Positions 15,559 to 58,103 of a DNA stretch of 64,000 nt are shown here, piece by piece. Position numbers and translations under genes: made by a program. The stretch covers positions 39,445-103,444 of the forward strand of contig CAZEKH010000001.1 of NCBI GenBank assembly GCA_964512925.1. The letters are read 5' to 3'. This DNA comes from an uncultured Candidatus Saccharibacteria bacterium. GTDB taxonomy: Bacteria; Patescibacteriota; Doudnabacteria; UBA920. The notes beneath the pieces were generated by a model. It ran no database searches. It saw only the letters and a list, made by a program, of their open reading frames with translations, and was not told the origin of the DNA. Position 1 is the first letter of the stretch. Each line of letters begins with the position of its first letter.

Positions 15559-16146
15559 CTATAACTTTTTAAATTTCTTTGACACGTACAGGCTGAACAA
15601 AAAAAATAAACAGAAAATACCCAGCAAAACCAACTCGCCGTATTTCAAAAAACCCAGCAAGGTTTGATACGATGAGCTAAAAACATAAGCCAAGGTTCCA
15701 AAAATACTCAGCCAAATCACGACAGATAAAAAACCAAATCCAATATATTGTTTCATTGGAAACTTTAACACTCCAAACCGCAACAGCGCAGTACGATGCA
15801 GGCCATAAACAAATTTGGACAACAACATTACTTTAAACGGCTTTTCTAAAAAATGATTGTCAAAACGTCCTACCATTTTATGTAAAAAACCAACAAATTT
15901 TTCAAACCGGTGCAAATGCCTGCCAATATAATACCAGATCTGCTGCTCTAAAAGAGCGCCAAAAACCACGGACAACAGTACTGGCCAAAACCCAAGACTG
16001 CCCTGAGTTACTGCAAAGGCAGCTGCAAAAACTGTAATCATTGCCTCGACTGACATCCCTAAAACAATAGCCAAGTATGCCAAAATAGGGGACAGGGTTA
16101 AAAAAACAAAATCCATAAACAAATAAATAAAAATAACTCCCCACAC
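15559..16146 (-). CDS. DedA / VTT-domain family membrane protein
   Basis: 195 aa, 4-5 TM segments. Conserved glycine/glutamate pattern (GALLEQQIWYYIGRH) as in DedA/TVP38. Confidence 0.55.
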   Translation of the reverse strand: MWGVIFIYLFMDFVFLTLSPILAYLAIVLGMSVEAMITVFAAAFAVTQGSLGFWPVLLSVVFGALLEQQIWYYIGRHLHRFEKFVGFLHKMVGRFDNHFLEKPFKVMLLSKFVYGLHRTALLRFGVLKFPMKQYIGFGFLSVVIWLSIFGTLAYVFSSSYQTLLGFLKYGELVLLGIFCLFFLFSLYVSKKFKKL

Positions 16147-16240: not shown

Positions 16241-17755
16241 TTAGGCGCTATGCAACACCTCAATTTTTGCTCCTAAAGTTTTCAAACGACTAACAAGATC
16301 CTCATATCCGCGGTTAATAGAATACACATTACGAAGAACGGAAGTTCCTTTGGCTGCCAGCATACCAATCAAAATAATAGCAGCCGGCCGAAGGGCGGGC
16401 GGACAGATAACTTCAGCCCCTTTAAGCTCACTTACACCTTCTATTTGTACCCGATGAGCGTCCAGCAAAGTCAGATTGGCCCGCAATTTAGAAAGCTCTA
16501 GATAATAAATTGCGCGATTTTCATAAACCCAATCATGGATTAAGGTCCTGCCTTTTGCTAGAGCGGCAAGAGGCACAAAAAATGGCAAATTGTCTATATT
16601 TATCCCGGCATTTGAAGGCAGGGGATGAATTTTTTCTGTAAGAGCTGTTAAATTACCAGTCGCCATGGTTTTGATGTCACACAATTTCGTATAACCATTT
16701 TGGCTGAGATAGTTTTTAATTATTTTATACTTAAAACCCATTTTTTCCATCTTTAACAGCTCCATCCGTAAAAACTCTATGGGACACCTTTCAATTGTTA
16801 TGTTGGAGCTCGTTGCCGCCGCCAAGGACAAAAAAAGCATTGACTCAATAGGATCCTCGCTTACTGCAAATTCTATATTTCTATCTATCTCATCTACACC
16901 CTCAATCTCCAAAGTTGAAGAGCCAATACCGGAAATTTTTACTCCCAATTTTTGCAAAAAGAAGCAGACATCCTGCACCATATAATTAGCCGAGGCCAAG
17001 CGAACAGTGGTTTTTCCAGGACATAACGCAGCCGCCATCACAATATTTTCTGTTACCGTATCACCCATTTCATATAAAGTGATATCAGCGGCTTTCAGAT
17101 TTTTAGCAGATATTTCATAATGATCGTGAATGGTTTTTATTTTTATTCCCAATCTCTCTAAAGCAAACAAGTGCGGAGCAACTGTGCGCTGACCCAGTTT
17201 GCAGCCACCAGCAAATGGTAGAGAAAATTCGGGCAAAAAATGCGCCAAAGGACCCATAAGCATAATCACGGTGCGAGTTTTTATCGCTGCTTGAATATCC
17301 AACTGCTGAATGGCAAATATTTTCGGCGGCTTTATAAGCAAGTCATTATTTTGCCATTTAACGCTGACCCCAATACTGCTTAAAACCTCAATTATTCTAT
17401 ATACTTCTTCAATCTTCGGAACATTTTTTAAGGTTGTCGCTCCCTTGTTTAAAAGCGAAGCGCACATCAAACCCAAAGCGCAATTTTTAGAAGTATTGGT
17501 TCTGACAGCGCCGGAAAGTTCGCGCCCTCCCTCAATCTTAAAATTCAACTGTTCAGAGGCTAACGAAATTATCTTTCTGTTTAACACCCCGGAAATTTTT
17601 GAAAGCATTTCGGTAGAAAAATTCTGCAAACCTTTTTCCATACGCGCAACTGCTGACTGACTAGTTTTTAAACTTTTGGCAAAATCTGCCTGGCTTATAC
17701 CTTGTTTTTGCCTGAGCTTTTGAATAAACTTTCCGATAGTTTTGGCTTCAATCAT
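16241..17755 (-). CDS. murA: UDP-N-acetylglucosamine 1-carboxyvinyltransferase homolog with N-terminal HTH_XRE domain
   Basis: Residues ~1-65, IGKFIQKLRQKQGISQADFAKSLKTSQSAVARMEKG, form an XRE helix-turn-helix. The remainder is an EPT-fold MurA with AGGCKLGQRTVAPH (catalytic Cys loop) and MurA-like N-lobe. Confidence 0.8.
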   Translation of the reverse strand: MIEAKTIGKFIQKLRQKQGISQADFAKSLKTSQSAVARMEKGLQNFSTEMLSKISGVLNRKIISLASEQLNFKIEGGRELSGAVRTNTSKNCALGLMCASLLNKGATTLKNVPKIEEVYRIIEVLSSIGVSVKWQNNDLLIKPPKIFAIQQLDIQAAIKTRTVIMLMGPLAHFLPEFSLPFAGGCKLGQRTVAPHLFALERLGIKIKTIHDHYEISAKNLKAADITLYEMGDTVTENIVMAAALCPGKTTVRLASANYMVQDVCFFLQKLGVKISGIGSSTLEIEGVDEIDRNIEFAVSEDPIESMLFLSLAAATSSNITIERCPIEFLRMELLKMEKMGFKYKIIKNYLSQNGYTKLCDIKTMATGNLTALTEKIHPLPSNAGINIDNLPFFVPLAALAKGRTLIHDWVYENRAIYYLELSKLRANLTLLDAHRVQIEGVSELKGAEVICPPALRPAAIILIGMLAAKGTSVLRNVYSINRGYEDLVSRLKTLGAKIEVLHSA

Positions 17756-17808
17756 ATATTTTAGACTTAAGATTATTATCGCTTACATTATATCATATAT
17801 GATATTAT

Positions 17809-17835
17809 AAAACAACCCGCCTAGGCGGGTTGTTT
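17809..17835 (-). terminator. Hairpin terminator AAACAACCCGCC-TAG-GCGGGTTGTTT
   Basis: Perfect 12-bp stem downstream of the small minus-strand ORF 17848-18087. Confidence 0.5.
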
Positions 17836-17847
17836 GATGTAAATTTG

Positions 17848-18087
17848 TTAAAGCTGGAAAACCTGCTTAAACCAGGCTTCTAAAAAATGCGTTTTTTGGT
17901 TATAAAAATATACCGCCAAAACCACAGTCAAATAAAGCAAATTGAGCAAAACCAACCTCACCAAGTCGTGCTTGATCACAGTATATTCCTCAGCCTCGGA
18001 AAACATCTGGACATTTTGACTGTTATTTTTTTTCAATTTTTGGGACATAAACAAATAATTAATAGTCATTAAAATAAATATTAACAT
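17848..18087 (-). CDS. Small hypothetical membrane protein
   Basis: 79 aa with one hydrophobic segment. Weak support. Confidence 0.25.
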   Translation of the reverse strand: MLIFILMTINYLFMSQKLKKNNSQNVQMFSEAEEYTVIKHDLVRLVLLNLLYLTVVLAVYFYNQKTHFLEAWFKQVFQL

Positions 18088-18134: not shown

Positions 18135-18629
18135 ATGCAAACATTTTTTAGCCAAAATCCCAATTTTATTGGGTATATTCTGACTTTATTTGCCCTGACG
18201 CTTTCAGGTTTGGCGCTGTATAAGATCAAAAATCTGAACAGTTTAAAAAAGAAATTTTTCCAAGGGTCCGATGGCGCTGACCTGGAAAATATTCTGAGAG
18301 TTTTGGACAGCAACTTGCAGGATTTGCAAAATCAGCAACTATATTTGGAGCAAAAATTGCTGGATCTGACAGAAGACGGGTCGTACGCAATAAAAAAAAT
18401 CGGGCTGGTGAAATTCAACCCGTATGAAAACAGCGGGGGAAATTTAAGTTTTTGCATTGCCCTCTTAAATGGCAAAAATTCGGGTTTAATACTGACTTCT
18501 ATGCACGGACGAGAGCATAACCGAATCTATACGAAAAAAATAATCGGTGGAAAAAGTGAAATAACACTGACAGAAGAAGAAATCAAAGCTGTCAACCTTG
18601 CTCAAGGACAAAAAGATTTCAACCCTTAA
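18135..18629 (+). CDS. DUF4446 family protein
   Basis: 164 aa. N-terminal TM, coiled-coil. C-terminal VKFNPYENSGGNLSFCIALLNGKNSGLILTSMHGRE matches the DUF4446 signature. Confidence 0.55.
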   Translation: MQTFFSQNPNFIGYILTLFALTLSGLALYKIKNLNSLKKKFFQGSDGADLENILRVLDSNLQDLQNQQLYLEQKLLDLTEDGSYAIKKIGLVKFNPYENSGGNLSFCIALLNGKNSGLILTSMHGREHNRIYTKKIIGGKSEITLTEEEIKAVNLAQGQKDFNP

Positions 18630-18674
18630 ACATTAATTCAGGCTTTTAAACAAGCCTTGGAACAAATCTAAAAT

Positions 18675-19085
18675 ATGAACAAAATTTTTGAAGAAAGCCA
18701 GAGCCAGCAGGCTGACACAGTGGTGGGACCTTCAGTAAAAATTCAAGGTGATTTAAACAGCGAGGGTAACATCCGCATCGAAGGTCAGGTTTCCGGAAAA
18801 GTCAAAACCAGCCAGAGCGTATTTGTCATTCAAGGCGCAAAAATCACCGCCGATGTAGTAGCCGGCAATGCGGTTATTGGCGGTGAAATTCAAGGTAATT
18901 TAAAAATATCCGGGCAGCTAATTTTGCAGCCTACGGCTAAAATTTTGGGCGACATTGCCTGCCAAGTTTTGCGGGTGGAAGACGGTGCGGTTTTTTCCGG
19001 CAAATGTTCTATGAACACCGGGGAAATGGTTTCCACCAATGGAAAAAAGTCGGTTAAGCTTGTTGAGGAAATAGAGCAAGAGTAA
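18675..19085 (+). CDS. Bactofilin (polymer-forming cytoskeletal protein, DUF583)
   Basis: Repetitive beta-helical pattern IQGDLNSEGNIRIEGQVSGKVKTSQSVFVIQGAKITADVVAGNAVIGGEIQGNL. Confidence 0.8.
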   Translation: MNKIFEESQSQQADTVVGPSVKIQGDLNSEGNIRIEGQVSGKVKTSQSVFVIQGAKITADVVAGNAVIGGEIQGNLKISGQLILQPTAKILGDIACQVLRVEDGAVFSGKCSMNTGEMVSTNGKKSVKLVEEIEQE

Positions 19086-54356: not shown

Positions 54357-55700
54357 ATGACAAACCAGCAACTGTGGCAAGCAATTTTGGGAAGCCTGGA
54401 AATTTCCTTAAGCAAAGCAAATTTTAATACCTGGTTTAAAAATACTTCAATTATTGAAAAATTGAGCGATACGATAGTAATAGGCGTGCCAAGCACCTTT
54501 AACAGGGATTGGATAGCTGCCAAATACCACGCTGAAATGCTGAAAAGCTTAAAAAGCATTGCCCCGGAAATAAAAGAGATAAAATATCAATTAAATTCCC
54601 AAACCGCCAGAATCCAAAACACGCCGCAAAAAACAGCTGATGCGAACTCTTTACAAAAAAGGCCTTTAGAACAGCAGATTTTTTTCAACCTTAACCCCAA
54701 ATACACGTTTGAGACTTTCATTTTGGGGAAAAACAGCGAATTGGCTTATGCCGCCAGCCAAGCTGTGGCAAAAAATCCAGGCGGGCAATACAATCCGCTT
54801 TTCATTTATGGGGGAGTGGGTTTGGGCAAAACCCATTTGATGCACGCGGTTGGTCATAGCCTTTTAAGCTTGAAGCCGAATGCTAAGATTATATATGTAA
54901 CCTCGGAAAAATTTACCAACGACTACATCAATTCCATCGGGCAGAAAAAAATTGAGGATTTTAAAAAAAATTATCGCAGCGCAGACTGTTTAATGGTAGA
55001 CGATATTCAGTTTTTGGCTGGTAAAGAAGGTACCCAGGAAGAATTTTTTCACACCTTTAACGAGCTGAGGGATAACGGCAAACAAATTATCATCACCTCT
55101 GACAGACCTCCAAAAGAAATTCCCGCCATTGAGGAGCGGTTGGTTTCGCGTTTTGAGTGGGGAATGCTGGCTGATATTCAAGCTCCCGACTTGGAGACAA
55201 GGATGGCCATCCTAAGAATGAAAATGCAAAAACGCAACATCTCAATTTCAGAAGATGTCCTTTTTTACATAGCGGAAAACGTTCAAAACAATGTCAGGGA
55301 ACTGGAAGGCGCTTTAAACCGCCTGGCGGTCTATCAACAAATGGAAAACCGAGGGCTGATTTTAGAGCAAGCAAAAAGCATCTTGGCTAGCGTTATTGGG
55401 GCAAAGAAAAAAATCACCTCGCCCAAAAGAATAGCTGAAATTGTCGCTGATTTTTATAACATCACAACCGAAGACCTGATAAAACAATCCAGAAAAAAAG
55501 AATTTGTCAAACCAAGACAAATTGCAATGTATCTGATCCGTAAAGAACTAGATAGTTCATTTCCTTCAATTGGGGCGTTTTTTGGGGGACGGGATCATAC
55601 AACAGTTATGCATGGGGTAGAAAAAATCACCGGTCAAATTAAAGCGAAGGTTGAGTTTAAACAAGAGGTGGATTTAATTGAGGATAAACTGTTTAACTAA
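54357..55700 (+). CDS. dnaA: Chromosomal replication initiator DnaA
   Basis: Walker A GGVGLGKTHLMHAVGH. Box VII. C-terminal DNA-binding helix. Confidence 0.95.
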   Translation: MTNQQLWQAILGSLEISLSKANFNTWFKNTSIIEKLSDTIVIGVPSTFNRDWIAAKYHAEMLKSLKSIAPEIKEIKYQLNSQTARIQNTPQKTADANSLQKRPLEQQIFFNLNPKYTFETFILGKNSELAYAASQAVAKNPGGQYNPLFIYGGVGLGKTHLMHAVGHSLLSLKPNAKIIYVTSEKFTNDYINSIGQKKIEDFKKNYRSADCLMVDDIQFLAGKEGTQEEFFHTFNELRDNGKQIIITSDRPPKEIPAIEERLVSRFEWGMLADIQAPDLETRMAILRMKMQKRNISISEDVLFYIAENVQNNVRELEGALNRLAVYQQMENRGLILEQAKSILASVIGAKKKITSPKRIAEIVADFYNITTEDLIKQSRKKEFVKPRQIAMYLIRKELDSSFPSIGAFFGGRDHTTVMHGVEKITGQIKAKVEFKQEVDLIEDKLFN

Positions 55701-55873
55701 TGTGTGTAACTCTTTTAAATTTCTTGGGCGGTGTTTATTGGAACGGATAAAAAAATCTTTTCCTTTTTTAATCCACCAAAAAAATATTTGTTTTTATTTC
55801 ATCGCCCAATAAAAATCAGGTTAAAAAATCTTTTCCACTTATCAACAATACTTATTATTATTAATTAATATTT

Positions 55874-56974
55874 ATGCATATAATCTGTACACAAGAAAAT
55901 TTAAAACTCGGATTATTAGCAGTAGGAAAAATAACTACACTAAGTAACACACTGCCGGTGCTGGGAACAGTTTTATTAAAAGCCGAAAATGGAATGCTCC
56001 AACTTTCTGCGACAAATCTTGAAATTGCCGTTCAAACCCAAGTGCGGTGTAAGGTGGAAGAGGTCGGAGCTTTTTCCGTTAACTGTAAAACTTTTACGGA
56101 TTTGGTTAATAATTTTCCAAATAAAAATATTTCTTTAAAACTTAAAGATTCGGCTGTTGAGGTAGATAGTGAAAATTATCATACAAAAATAAAAACCTTT
56201 TCCGCTGAGGAATTCCCCTTGATTCCACCGACGGAAAATTTAAAAACAGTAAACGTTAAGGCTCAAGAGTTTAAAAAAGCGGCGGGAAAAGTTGTTTTTT
56301 CCGCGTCAACAAACCAAACCCAGCCAGAAATTTCCGGTATATTGTTTGGTTTTCGCCAAAACCAATTAAAACTTGCTGCCACAGACCGCTATCGTCTGGC
56401 AGAGAAAAAAATCTTTATTTCGGAAGAAGTAACTCAGCCGGGCGAGGTGATTGTGCCGGCAAAAGCGGTTTTAGAGGCGGTTAGGATAGCTTCTGCTTTT
56501 GATGGGGATATGAGTGTTGGTTGGAGTTTGGGTCAGGCGGTTTTTGTCATTGGGGGTACGACAATTTTCAGCCGGCTGGTTGACGGGCAATACCCGCCTT
56601 ACGAGCAGATCATCCCCGCGAGTTTTCAAGCTGAGGCGGTTGTGAAAAAACAAGACTTGGTGGGCGCGCTTAAAGCGGTTGGGGTTTTTAGTCAAAATAA
56701 CAGTAGTATGGTTTTGGATTACAATAACGAGAGCCAAAAATTTAACTTGTCCAGCGAGGCTGGGGATTTGGGTACTGGCAGTGTGGAGTTGGAGGCGGAA
56801 ATTAGCGGCGGGTCTGGCAGTTTGGTGGTTAACTTTCACTACCTTTTGGATGCTTTACAAAATATGGATTCGGACAAAATCAAGTTTCGTTTTAACGACG
56901 ATTCTTCTGCGATTTTAGTGGTTCCTATAGAAGAAAAGGACTACCTATATTTAGTGATGCCTATAAAAACATAG
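55874..56974 (+). CDS. dnaN: DNA polymerase III beta sliding clamp
   Basis: 366 aa, three-domain clamp pattern, position after dnaA. Confidence 0.9.
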   Translation: MHIICTQENLKLGLLAVGKITTLSNTLPVLGTVLLKAENGMLQLSATNLEIAVQTQVRCKVEEVGAFSVNCKTFTDLVNNFPNKNISLKLKDSAVEVDSENYHTKIKTFSAEEFPLIPPTENLKTVNVKAQEFKKAAGKVVFSASTNQTQPEISGILFGFRQNQLKLAATDRYRLAEKKIFISEEVTQPGEVIVPAKAVLEAVRIASAFDGDMSVGWSLGQAVFVIGGTTIFSRLVDGQYPPYEQIIPASFQAEAVVKKQDLVGALKAVGVFSQNNSSMVLDYNNESQKFNLSSEAGDLGTGSVELEAEISGGSGSLVVNFHYLLDALQNMDSDKIKFRFNDDSSAILVVPIEEKDYLYLVMPIKT

Positions 56975-57017
56975 TTTGGAGGTGTGTATTCAATTTACTA
57001 AAAAAGAAAATTTACAT

Positions 57018-58103
57018 ATGAAAGTAAAAAATCTAACCATCAAAAACTTCCGGAATTATCCGGAATTAAATATTGAAATAAGTCACGATATGATTGTTTT
57101 AAGCGGTCCAAATGCCGTGGGAAAAACCAATCTTTTGGAATCGGTTTATTTCGCTTCTTTGTTTAAATCTTTCCGCGATGATAATGAGTTTATTTTTTTA
57201 AAAAATACTGATAGCGCTGAAATAAAAGTTGTGGTGGAAAAAGCTGGGAGCCAAAATGTTTTGGAAATTTATTTGGCAAAAAAAGATAAAATCTTAGCTA
57301 ATTTTTTCATTGACGGGGTGAGAAAAAAACGCAAAGAAGCCCAGGGTTTTTTGCGTGTTGTGATATTTGATCCGACTGATGTGGATATGTTCACAAAGAA
57401 TCCGGAAGCCAGAAGAAAATATTTAAATATGGTTTTGTCGCAAAAAGACCCGGAGTATTTGGATATTTTAAGCGCTTATAAAAAAATTGTTTACCATAAA
57501 ACTAGGTTGTTAAGCGATCTTAAGCATGGAATGTCGTCTGCTTCGGATTTGTCAGATTGGAACGAGCAGTTGGCGGAATGGGGAAAAAAGATAATATTTG
57601 TCAGGAAAAAATTTATTGATTTTTTAAATCGTGATTTGTCGGATATCTACACTTCAATCTCCGGTTTTCATCGGCCTGTGGAAGTTGTTTATGAAACCTT
57701 GAACGGGCAAACTGAAGAGGAAATAAAAGAGTCTTTTTTAGCCAAGTTAAAATTATATGAGAAAAAAGAAAAACTAAGCGGTTCTTGTCTGGTTGGTCCG
57801 CATCGGGATGATTTTTTCTTGAAGAGTGAGGGTTTGTTTTTACCCCCATTTTCTTCCCGCGGCGAGCTAAGAAGCCAGGTTTTGGCGTTAAAAATAATGG
57901 AGCTTGAATATTTAAGCCGGGATGGAGAAAAGCCCATACTTTTGTTGGACGACGTGTTGTCCGAGCTGGACGAAAGCCGCAGGAATTTTTTGCTTAAATA
58001 CCTGCAGGGCAGGTTTCAGACTTTTATAACCACGACCCACCCGCTTGAAATGCCTGCTCAGCACATAACGTTAAGCCCAGCCCCTGAAGAAATAAAAATA
58101 TAA
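57018..58103 (+). CDS. recF: DNA replication/repair protein RecF
   Basis: MKVKNLTIKNFRNY...GPNAVGKTNLLESVYF. ATG at 57018 preferred over the TTG at 56976 that abuts the dnaN stop. Confidence 0.9.
   Translation: MKVKNLTIKNFRNYPELNIEISHDMIVLSGPNAVGKTNLLESVYFASLFKSFRDDNEFIFLKNTDSAEIKVVVEKAGSQNVLEIYLAKKDKILANFFIDGVRKKRKEAQGFLRVVIFDPTDVDMFTKNPEARRKYLNMVLSQKDPEYLDILSAYKKIVYHKTRLLSDLKHGMSSASDLSDWNEQLAEWGKKIIFVRKKFIDFLNRDLSDIYTSISGFHRPVEVVYETLNGQTEEEIKESFLAKLKLYEKKEKLSGSCLVGPHRDDFFLKSEGLFLPPFSSRGELRSQVLALKIMELEYLSRDGEKPILLLDDVLSELDESRRNFLLKYLQGRFQTFITTTHPLEMPAQHITLSPAPEEIKI

Follow-up and report, generated by a model that had tools for sequence, protein, structure and literature searches.

The subject of this report is a murA gene of an uncultured Candidatus Saccharibacteria bacterium (Patescibacteriota; Doudnabacteria), found on contig CAZEKH010000001.1 of assembly GCA_964512925.1, positions 39,445 to 103,444 of the forward strand, a stretch of 64,000 nucleotides that we call the window and number from its first letter. 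On the minus strand of the window, one open reading frame (ORF) encodes an XRE-type helix-turn-helix (HTH) domain and a MurA domain (UDP-N-acetylglucosamine, or UDP-GlcNAc, enolpyruvyl transferase) in a single protein, here termed HTH-MurA. MurA catalyzes the first committed reaction in the making of peptidoglycan, fosfomycin acts on it, and its control is a topic of active research. The comparative evidence presented below points to an enzyme that would also act as the repressor of its own gene. The parts of the gene are as follows.

16241..17755, minus strand: the HTH-MurA gene (ATG at 17753-17755, stop codon at 16241-16243; 504 amino acids), from the ORF and profile matches
17570..17725, minus strand: XRE-type HTH domain, residues 11-62, from Pfam HTH_3
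17546..17569, minus strand: short linker, residues 63-70, conserved in sequence and of low model confidence
16256..17545, minus strand: MurA domain, residues 71-500, from NF006873, PDB matches and Foldseek
17186..17212, minus strand: catalytic loop AGGCKLGQR, residues 182-190, in which C185 corresponds to C115 and R190 to R120 of Escherichia coli MurA

The fusion had been proposed from the letters of the DNA, without database searches (the sequence-only reading), and it is real. The HTH_3 match at residues 11-62 (E 4e-12) scores 46.4 bits against a Pfam gathering cut-off of 23, and in the AlphaFold2 (AF2) model of the full-length protein, built with 120 sequences, this part forms four helices (residues 2-17, 22-28, 33-40, and 48-58), with the recognition helix at approximately residues 31-42 (TSQSAVARMEKG); the score and the helix bundle together place the domain in the XRE (Cro/C1-type) class. 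The MurA domain follows directly, with no transmembrane segment. The model, which contains a complete MurA fold along with the HTH helices, has a mean predicted local distance difference test score (pLDDT) of 87.7 and a predicted template-modelling score of 0.82, with low confidence limited to residues 63-68 of the linker (pLDDT below 50) and to residues 184-190 of the catalytic loop. The catalytic loop of MurA is known to be mobile. In a Foldseek search, the model matches E. coli MurA (PDB 1uae) with a template-modelling score of 0.93, and the top 43 matches are all MurA, so that Pfam, AF2, and Foldseek agree on the two-domain, inside-out alpha/beta barrel of the EPSP_synthase family.

As to whether the MurA part is an active enzyme, multiple observations suggest that it is. 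The EPSP_synthase (PF00275) match spans residues 75-490 (E 1e-45), the NCBIfam model for a MurA subfamily, NF006873, is passed (324.6 bits, cut-off 297), and the closest relatives of solved structure are all MurA enzymes, such as those of Campylobacter (5ujs, E 1e-59) and E. coli (1uae, E 7e-45). With the E. coli sequence as the alignment reference (identical to PDB 1uae over 419 residues), the equivalents of K22, N23, R91, C115, R120, H125, D305, R331, R371, and R397 are invariant in 23 fused proteins, and in the window protein K90, N91, R161, C185, R190, D388, R456, and R482 take the places of K22, N23, R91, C115, R120, D305, R371, and R397, respectively, thus preserving the catalytic and substrate-binding residues of a MurA (EC 2.5.1.7). 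The MurA part is therefore complete, including the cysteine of the catalytic loop, as the sequence-only reading had stated. Compared to canonical MurA (E. coli 1uae, Campylobacter 5ujs, or the Gram-positive MurAA), the window protein shares the fold and the catalytic residues, including the cysteine targeted by fosfomycin, and it differs in the low identity (approximately 30%), the N-terminal HTH, two small insertions, and an alanine in place of Asp369. The cut-off of the equivalog model TIGR01072 is missed (317.9 versus 392.7), indicating a divergent MurA, and that of NF009470 is missed as well (227 versus 552). The position of Asp369 falls in a family-invariant CPPALRP motif (window residues 451-457, nucleotides approximately 16385-16405) that replaces the 'ATD-LRA' of E. 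coli. However, viable E. coli isolates with D369N variants of lower susceptibility to fosfomycin have been described (PMC4790336), so the replacement of Asp369 is no argument against catalysis; it might mean that the HTH-MurA enzymes differ in the binding of phosphoenolpyruvate (PEP) or fosfomycin. By these comparisons, the C-terminal 430 residues are apparently an active MurA.

The opposite view, that the window protein is a regulatory pseudo-enzyme, or else a fusion artefact with a normal MurA made from an internal start, could cite the TIGR01072 result, the loss of Asp369, and the existence of true pseudo-enzymes among the relatives (see below). We consider it very improbable, as all the catalytic and substrate residues checked are invariant, NF006873 is passed, and the fold is complete. 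The pseudo-enzyme copies that do exist adjoin a stand-alone murA (three loci), and no stand-alone murA is found in the window, where searches (tblastn) with both the fusion protein and E. coli MurA recover the HTH-MurA gene and no second murA, in agreement with the sequence-only reading. The pseudo-enzyme status of the window protein is rejected on residue conservation. Of the alternatives raised by the sequence-only reading itself, a frameshift or assembly error is likewise rejected, and an internal start is very improbable: the domain junction ('LAD.SVNFKIEGG') is kept in frame, without a conserved internal methionine, in 120 homologues, and the same continuous ORF is present in hundreds of independent assemblies.

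Once databases are searched, the architecture proves to be common rather than rare. All of the 120 best database matches (64-73% identity, 499-535 amino acids), from metagenome-assembled genomes of the Patescibacteria, or Candidate Phyla Radiation (CPR; Doudnabacteria, Liptonbacteria, Parcubacteria, and others), combine the HTH with EPSP_synthase, and all are annotated at the source plainly as 'UDP-N-acetylglucosamine 1-carboxyvinyltransferase.' In a scan of one genome per species, at least 592 stretches encode a relative, mostly in Patescibacteria/CPR, which are ultra-small bacteria; the record titles of the 80 loci compared below name Doudna-, Lipton-, Taylor-, Uhr-, Kerfeld-, Nomura-, and Kaiserbacteria, Paceibacterota, and Saccharimonadales. 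Among 1.84 billion representative sequences, fused proteins are found down to 32-36% identity, along with relatives lacking the HTH at up to 59% identity. One fused cluster (P0122; 51% identity, 246 members) belongs to cultured actinomycetes of the genus Nonomuraea, and RefSeq names its proteins either MurA or 'helix-turn-helix domain-containing protein.' Fused genes of Actinomycetota are represented in our set by Nonomuraea sp. NEAU-A123 (L088; JAHFZZ010000002.1, 8001-9530) and by loci L062 and L077. The claim of the sequence-only reading that this is not a described architecture thus needs to be qualified, as one of its own grounds for refutation, a common and annotated architecture, holds as far as databases are concerned, given the species count, the WP_ entries of Nonomuraea, and a Pfam-derived table listing HTH_3 as a 'promiscuous' partner of PF00275, attributed to 5-enolpyruvylshikimate-3-phosphate synthase (PMC9394408). 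As to function, a search of the full-text literature returned that co-occurrence table and no functional description of HTH-MurA.

A palindrome at the proposed promoter of the fused gene

For comparison, 80 of the at least 592 loci were analyzed, 75 with the fused form and 5 with a MurA lacking the HTH (loci are denoted by L numbers and proteins by P numbers). The DNA upstream of these genes contains, near the start codon of most fused genes, a palindrome of the form ATAxCA-N4-TGx'TAT. In the window, the relevant features are the following.

17790..17805, no strand assigned: perfect 16-bp palindrome ATATCATATATGATAT, the proposed operator, the sole match in the window (0.12 expected)
17787..17795, minus strand: extended -10 element TGATATAAT of the putative murA promoter, sharing bases with the right operator half-site
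17810..17835, minus strand: G+C-rich hairpin of 26 nucleotides, AAACAACCCGCCTAGGCGGGTTGTTT, with a 13-bp inverted repeat and a putative function

The window version of the palindrome reads ATATCA-N4-TGATAT, and the centers of its half-sites are 10 bp apart, i.e., one helical turn. The overlap with a -10 element (TGnTATAAT or TGnTATACT) recurs in most loci. The proposed murA promoter is not listed by a scan for consensus promoters, as its -35 element is weak (TTGTTT), and the assignment of the -10 element thus relies on the reading of the sequence and on its conservation. The hairpin at 17810..17835 is probably the terminator of a small upstream ORF (17848-18087), which would isolate the murA promoter.

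When sites are scored by the 10 fixed bases plus the complementarity of x and x' (maximum 11), 57 sites with scores of at least 10 are found in the 11.1 kb upstream of the fused genes and 26 in the other 864 kb of the loci, so that the densities differ 167-fold, and for perfect sites the numbers are 32 versus 6, a 383-fold difference. In 43 of 67 cases the site begins between -25 and -29 relative to the ATG, and approximately 70 of the 74 evaluable fused loci possess a site overlapping their own -10 box, the location typical of the operators of enzyme-repressors. Most apparent absences have explanations: the contig is truncated (L017, L022), the site is located slightly further upstream (L011, L024) or before a co-oriented upstream ORF (L044), the start codon needs correction (L049), or the site is a variant one (L062). 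This conserved operator on the gene's own -10 box lends comparative support to the suggestion of the sequence-only reading that the fusion might tie transcription to the amount of the enzyme.

Two other explanations of the palindrome need to be considered. According to one, it belongs to the promoter as such, or is bound by a separately encoded regulator, with the fused HTH having some other target or role. The right half-site is indeed an extended -10 box (TGnTATAAT), and CPR genomes encode other XRE proteins. However, the 864 kb in which the motif is so much less dense contain approximately ten other promoters per locus, and the left half-site, while not a promoter element, mirrors the changes in the right half. 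Moreover, the motif is missing from all five relatives without the HTH, it is present beside catalytically dead paralogues, and it persists in an actinomycete of 69% GC, beside an integrase gene, where a CPR-specific trans-factor would be missing. A generic CPR promoter motif is rejected on the enrichment upstream of the fused gene, and the explanation as a whole seems unlikely. According to the other, the palindrome is an RNA hairpin in the 5' leader, controlling translation or stability, and the co-variation of the half-sites reflects base pairing. A change at positions 4 and 13 would indeed keep a base pair, and the region folds at -7 kcal/mol. However, it folds no better than shuffled sequence (z = -0.86, with 40 of 200 shuffles folding as well), none of the Rfam families approaches its gathering threshold, and at 10 of the 12 positions of the half-sites the sequence itself, and not the pairing alone, is conserved. 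In most loci approximately 12 nucleotides separate the end of the site from the ATG, and the -10 box falls within the site, so that most of the site would remain untranscribed. The presence of the site also tracks the presence of the HTH. We give this explanation next to no credence. The operator of an autorepressor remains, in our opinion, the better description of the palindrome.

Site arrangement varies among lineages. The closest relatives of the window gene (L001, L003, L004, L005, L006) possess two operator-like sites, at approximately -72 to -80 and -16 to -23, and the window gene possesses one, at -50, its leader being approximately 25 nucleotides long. Most other lineages have approximately 10 nucleotides between the end of the -10 box and the ATG, implying near-leaderless mRNAs. 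As to a regulon beyond murA, the window contains one strong site, and none is found upstream of its genes for Alr, Ddl, the Mur ligase, or the penicillin-binding protein (PBP). Operator-like sequences are also found in coding regions. One, AATATCAGCCTTGA(T/G)ATG, is located inside the HTH coding region, at +142 from the start codon, in Saccharimonadia-type loci (L032, L039, L042, L046, L057, L058, L079), where it encodes N-I-S-L-E/D-M; it is probably a coding coincidence, and it could be a second, internal site. Another, the near-match ATATCAAC(A/G/T)ATCATAT, is found in a long upstream ORF (L014, position 3329; L026, 1051; L055, 981; L085, 2424; L087, 2188), annotated as MreB in the last two. 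By visual inspection, this near-match encodes a conserved motif of MreB; its likeness to the operator is most likely a coincidence of coding.

Joint change, loss, and transfer of domain and site

Multiple lines of evidence connect the fused HTH with the palindrome. One is the recognition helix (TSQSAVARMEKG.QN), almost invariant among proteins that are only approximately 65% identical overall, implying a conserved partner. Another is co-variation. The half-sites change as pairs (ATATCA/TGATAT, ATAGCA/TGCTAT, ATCTCA/TGAGAT), the association of G at position 4 with C at position 13 having a Fisher p of 6e-10, a value that ignores phylogenetic non-independence. The recognition helix changes along with them: TSQSAVAR is found with the T/A variant of the operator in 17 of 18 cases, TTQS with the G/C variant in 15 of 17, and TSQSSVPR with the half-sites TCTCA/TGAGA, of which L031 has both and L021 one. 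A strict one-residue code, in which Ser or Thr at residue 32 would go with T or G at operator position 4, was considered and rejected; the trend is strong, but there are exceptions.

Loss of the HTH provides a third line of evidence. None of the five loci lacking the HTH (L059, L065, L073, L075, L076) contains a site with a score of 9 or above, and in a rough neighbor-joining tree these relatives are nested inside the fused clade, at no fewer than three separate positions, suggesting that the HTH and the operator were lost together. In L059, L065, and L075, murA starts right after an upstream gene whose product has a C-terminus that appears, by eye, thioredoxin-reductase-like; in these, an operon fusion has taken the place of the HTH and of the promoter/operator.

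Loci held out of the model provide a fourth. In three of the four new ones (L084, L085, L086) one perfect site is present 27-60 bp upstream of the fused gene, the sole one in 7.5 kb. A further example is presented by Nonomuraea sp. NEAU-A123, the 69% GC actinomycete mentioned above, with a perfect palindrome, ATCTCATATGTGAGAT, at -29 from its fused gene. The rough tree places the actinomycete copies beside Saccharimonadia-type sequences, and the gene and its operator seem to have moved into the actinomycetes together, which suggests horizontal transfer from CPR epibionts to their actinomycete hosts. In the Nonomuraea locus, the fused gene is followed by a phage-type integrase gene and a small XRE gene.

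Enzyme, proposed autorepressor, and putative derived regulators

A small sister clade of the fused enzymes has kept the HTH and lost catalysis. In P0129, P0130, P0141, P0271, and P0274, and in the more remote P0144, P0146, P0172, and P0216, both the cysteine loop and R91 are gone. R371 and R397 are lost in most of these proteins as well, with an equivalent of R371 kept in P0146 and an equivalent of R397 in P0144. Several of the dead paralogues retain the equivalents of K22/N23 and D305, while C115 and most or all of R91, R120, R371, and R397 are gone. The clade comprises approximately eight close members and is most nearly related to the active fused enzymes. Genes for its members P0274 and P0271 are located as follows, in the coordinates of the respective loci.

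L081, 10001-11518: sister-clade gene
L082, 10001-11536: sister-clade gene
L083, 1605-3140: sister-clade gene

In L081, the gene is arranged head-to-head with an operon encoding Mur ligases (murD and others), a stand-alone enzyme of the EPSP_synthase family whose PGGCxLGxR loop is intact, and murB. The sole perfect operator in 21.5 kb falls within the 71-bp gap between the two. The arrangement is the same in L082 and L083, with a palindromic variant, ATAACTTATATGTTAT, in a gap of 29 bp. The site is thus positioned in a divergent control region of a mur operon, and the clade looks like a case of subfunctionalization into an enzyme and a regulator, its members looking like dedicated regulators derived from MurA. 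A regulatory pseudo-enzyme, which the sequence-only reading had considered for the window protein, does not fit that protein and does fit this clade. As the fold was kept after catalysis had been lost, the MurA fold appears to be needed for regulation, through dimerization, ligand sensing, or both. P0127 represents the opposite outcome, with a degenerate HTH and intact catalytic residues. No pseudo-enzyme paralogue adjoins an active fused gene in 81 loci. On this view, the family illustrates how an essential enzyme may give rise to a protein devoted to regulation.

Taken together, these data favor HTH-MurA as an enzyme that doubles as the repressor of its own gene, in the manner of BirA and PutA, with a probability that we place at approximately 0.7. 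The architecture, the conservation of the catalytic residues, the conservation and enrichment of the operator, and its co-variation, co-loss, and co-transfer with the HTH are observed, and from them we infer DNA binding by the HTH, repression, dimerization, enzymatic activity, and any ligand control. In the mechanism proposed, two molecules of HTH-MurA would bind the palindrome, with the half-site centers on one face of the helix, and occlude the -10 element, so that MurA would repress its own synthesis (negative autoregulation). The gene, the operator, and the regulator would constitute a self-contained module that much of the CPR has inherited, that a few lineages have lost whole (HTH plus operator), and that passed in one piece to actinomycetes. 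To the HTH, the MurA fold would probably also supply dimerization and/or the sensing of ligands (the UDP-sugar state). A more specific version, which we hold only tentatively, is that the fold is both the catalyst and the ligand-sensing and dimerization module, with affinity for the operator set by its occupancy by UDP-GlcNAc, PEP, or the feedback ligand UDP-N-acetylmuramic acid (UDP-MurNAc), i.e., by the open or closed state. The residues that the dead paralogues have kept and lost provide an indirect hint of such a switch. If it exists, the murA promoter, joined in some lineages by those of mreB or of the mur operon, would be where much of the CPR reads its flux of peptidoglycan precursors, and the paralogues without catalysis would represent the first UDP-sugar-sensing regulators derived from MurA; no sensor derived from MurA or EPSP synthase was found in the literature searched.

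Several observations weigh against autorepression by an active enzyme. As already mentioned, TIGR01072 is missed and Asp369 is replaced. Approximately three of the 74 evaluable loci are real absences, and the fused loci L019, L038, and L087 have no site. The operator model was built from the same 80 loci on which it was first scored, which the hold-outs offset in part, and, the right half of the operator being an extended -10 box, part of its conservation is the conservation of a promoter. The p value for co-variation is subject to the phylogenetic limit given with it, and L025, L026, and L085 are exceptions to the rule connecting helix and half-site. MurA enzymes are generally monomeric, so that a dimer on the palindrome is hypothetical, and the AF2 model, with the low confidence of its linker, shows no fixed interface between the HTH and MurA.

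Bifunctional enzyme-repressors are already an established class, to which a MurA with a repressor domain of its own would add a cell-wall member. Like HTH-MurA, which carries a catalytic and a DNA-binding domain on one chain, BirA has an N-terminal DNA-binding domain of the HTH type and a C-terminal enzyme on one polypeptide. Bound to its palindromic operator as a dimer, BirA represses the pathway that it serves, and both its dimerization and its DNA binding are triggered by the reaction intermediate biotinyl-AMP; the mechanism proposed for HTH-MurA is modelled on BirA. It differs in that its HTH is winged rather than XRE-type, its enzyme fold is unrelated, and its target is the bio operon, whereas HTH-MurA is predicted to repress mainly itself. 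PutA and NadR are likewise metabolic enzymes with a built-in DNA-binding domain; they autoregulate their own genes or pathway and belong to the established class of trigger enzymes. Their DNA-binding domains are a ribbon-helix-helix in PutA and a different HTH in NadR, their enzyme folds are other ones, the signals are the redox/membrane state and NAD, respectively, and none of them functions in peptidoglycan synthesis. MocR/GabR, the ROK repressors NagC and Mlc, and the RpiR-SIS proteins combine an HTH with a sensor derived from an enzyme (of aminotransferase, sugar-kinase, or isomerase folds). The sister clade (P0129, P0130, P0141, P0271, P0274) resembles these types in having an HTH on a catalytically inactive enzyme fold, and the window protein is unlike them, as its enzyme is intact by sequence. 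The known modes of MurA control are post-translational (proteolysis, kinase signaling, and feedback inhibition), in contrast to a DNA-binding domain on the enzyme itself: PMC8959180 describes proteolysis involving ClpCP/ReoM/PrkA in Firmicutes, PMC4946905 describes activation by CwlM in mycobacteria, and the titles of PDB entries refer to UDP-MurNAc feedback complexes of MurA.

A MurA with its own repressor domain would be a very compact means of control, unlike the known ones, in the CPR, a large and little-understood portion of bacterial diversity whose reduced genomes have few regulators. The analysis yields a cis-element and a predicted correspondence between protein residues and operator bases, and the lineages that lost the HTH, those that lost catalysis, and the transfer into cultured Nonomuraea present natural experiments that make the hypothesis directly testable.

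Gene neighborhoods

No universally conserved neighbor or operon was found for the fused gene in the loci compared, the links with mreB, glyA, priA, and murB being lineage-specific. The most common neighbor is mreB, in approximately 17-21 of the 80 loci, mostly in divergent orientation (L025, L026, L028, L035, and L048, for example). It is also adjacent in all four hold-out loci (L084-L087), in L086 directly downstream on the same strand. The short divergent gap between mreB and murA usually holds the operator. The two genes may be co-regulated, or MurA and MreB may be functionally linked, and in short divergent gaps the operator could act on mreB, glyA, or murB too.

These neighborhoods are the basis for the main rival of autorepression, in which the HTH is a protein-protein module that, in the manner of RodZ, tethers MurA to MreB or the elongasome, localizing precursor synthesis. 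RodZ is a precedent, with a cytoplasmic XRE-type HTH that binds MreB and is followed by a transmembrane segment, and it resembles HTH-MurA as a cell-wall/morphogenesis protein that has an XRE-type HTH and is linked to mreB; in the window, a bactofilin gene is located 0.9 kb from the HTH-MurA gene. However, the RodZ-type domain HTH_25 is absent from the Pfam matches at E of 0.01 or below, HTH-MurA has no transmembrane segment and does have a conserved operator, and the linkage with mreB is lineage-specific, with glyA as the neighbor in Saccharimonadia-type loci and DUF4446 in the window. A tether would also leave unexplained the fixed position of the palindrome, its co-variation with the helix, its loss together with the HTH, and its transfer to actinomycetes. 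We thus regard a purely RodZ-like role as improbable, while noting that binding of MreB and binding of an operator are compatible and could coexist. Autorepression remains the reading that we prefer.

In the window, Alr, Ddl, a Mur ligase, a class A PBP, and bactofilin are encoded, from which it follows that the organism makes peptidoglycan. The DUF4446 gene and the bactofilin gene are located divergently upstream of murA (18135-19085), and DUF4446 is a neighbor in six related loci as well. One further feature is located at the end of the gene.

16243..16260, minus strand: terminator-like hairpin at the HTH-MurA stop codon, from a consensus scan only

This hairpin suggests that murA of the window is monocistronic. 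Located 94 bp downstream of murA, at 15559-16146, is a gene for a membrane protein weakly similar to VTT/DedA (below the Pfam cut-off). Proteins of the DedA family are linked to the recycling of undecaprenyl phosphate. Finally, dnaA, dnaN, and a recF-like gene are found in a row at 54357-58103 of the window, and the chromosomal replication origin is probably located just upstream of this row, at approximately 53.4-54.3 kb.

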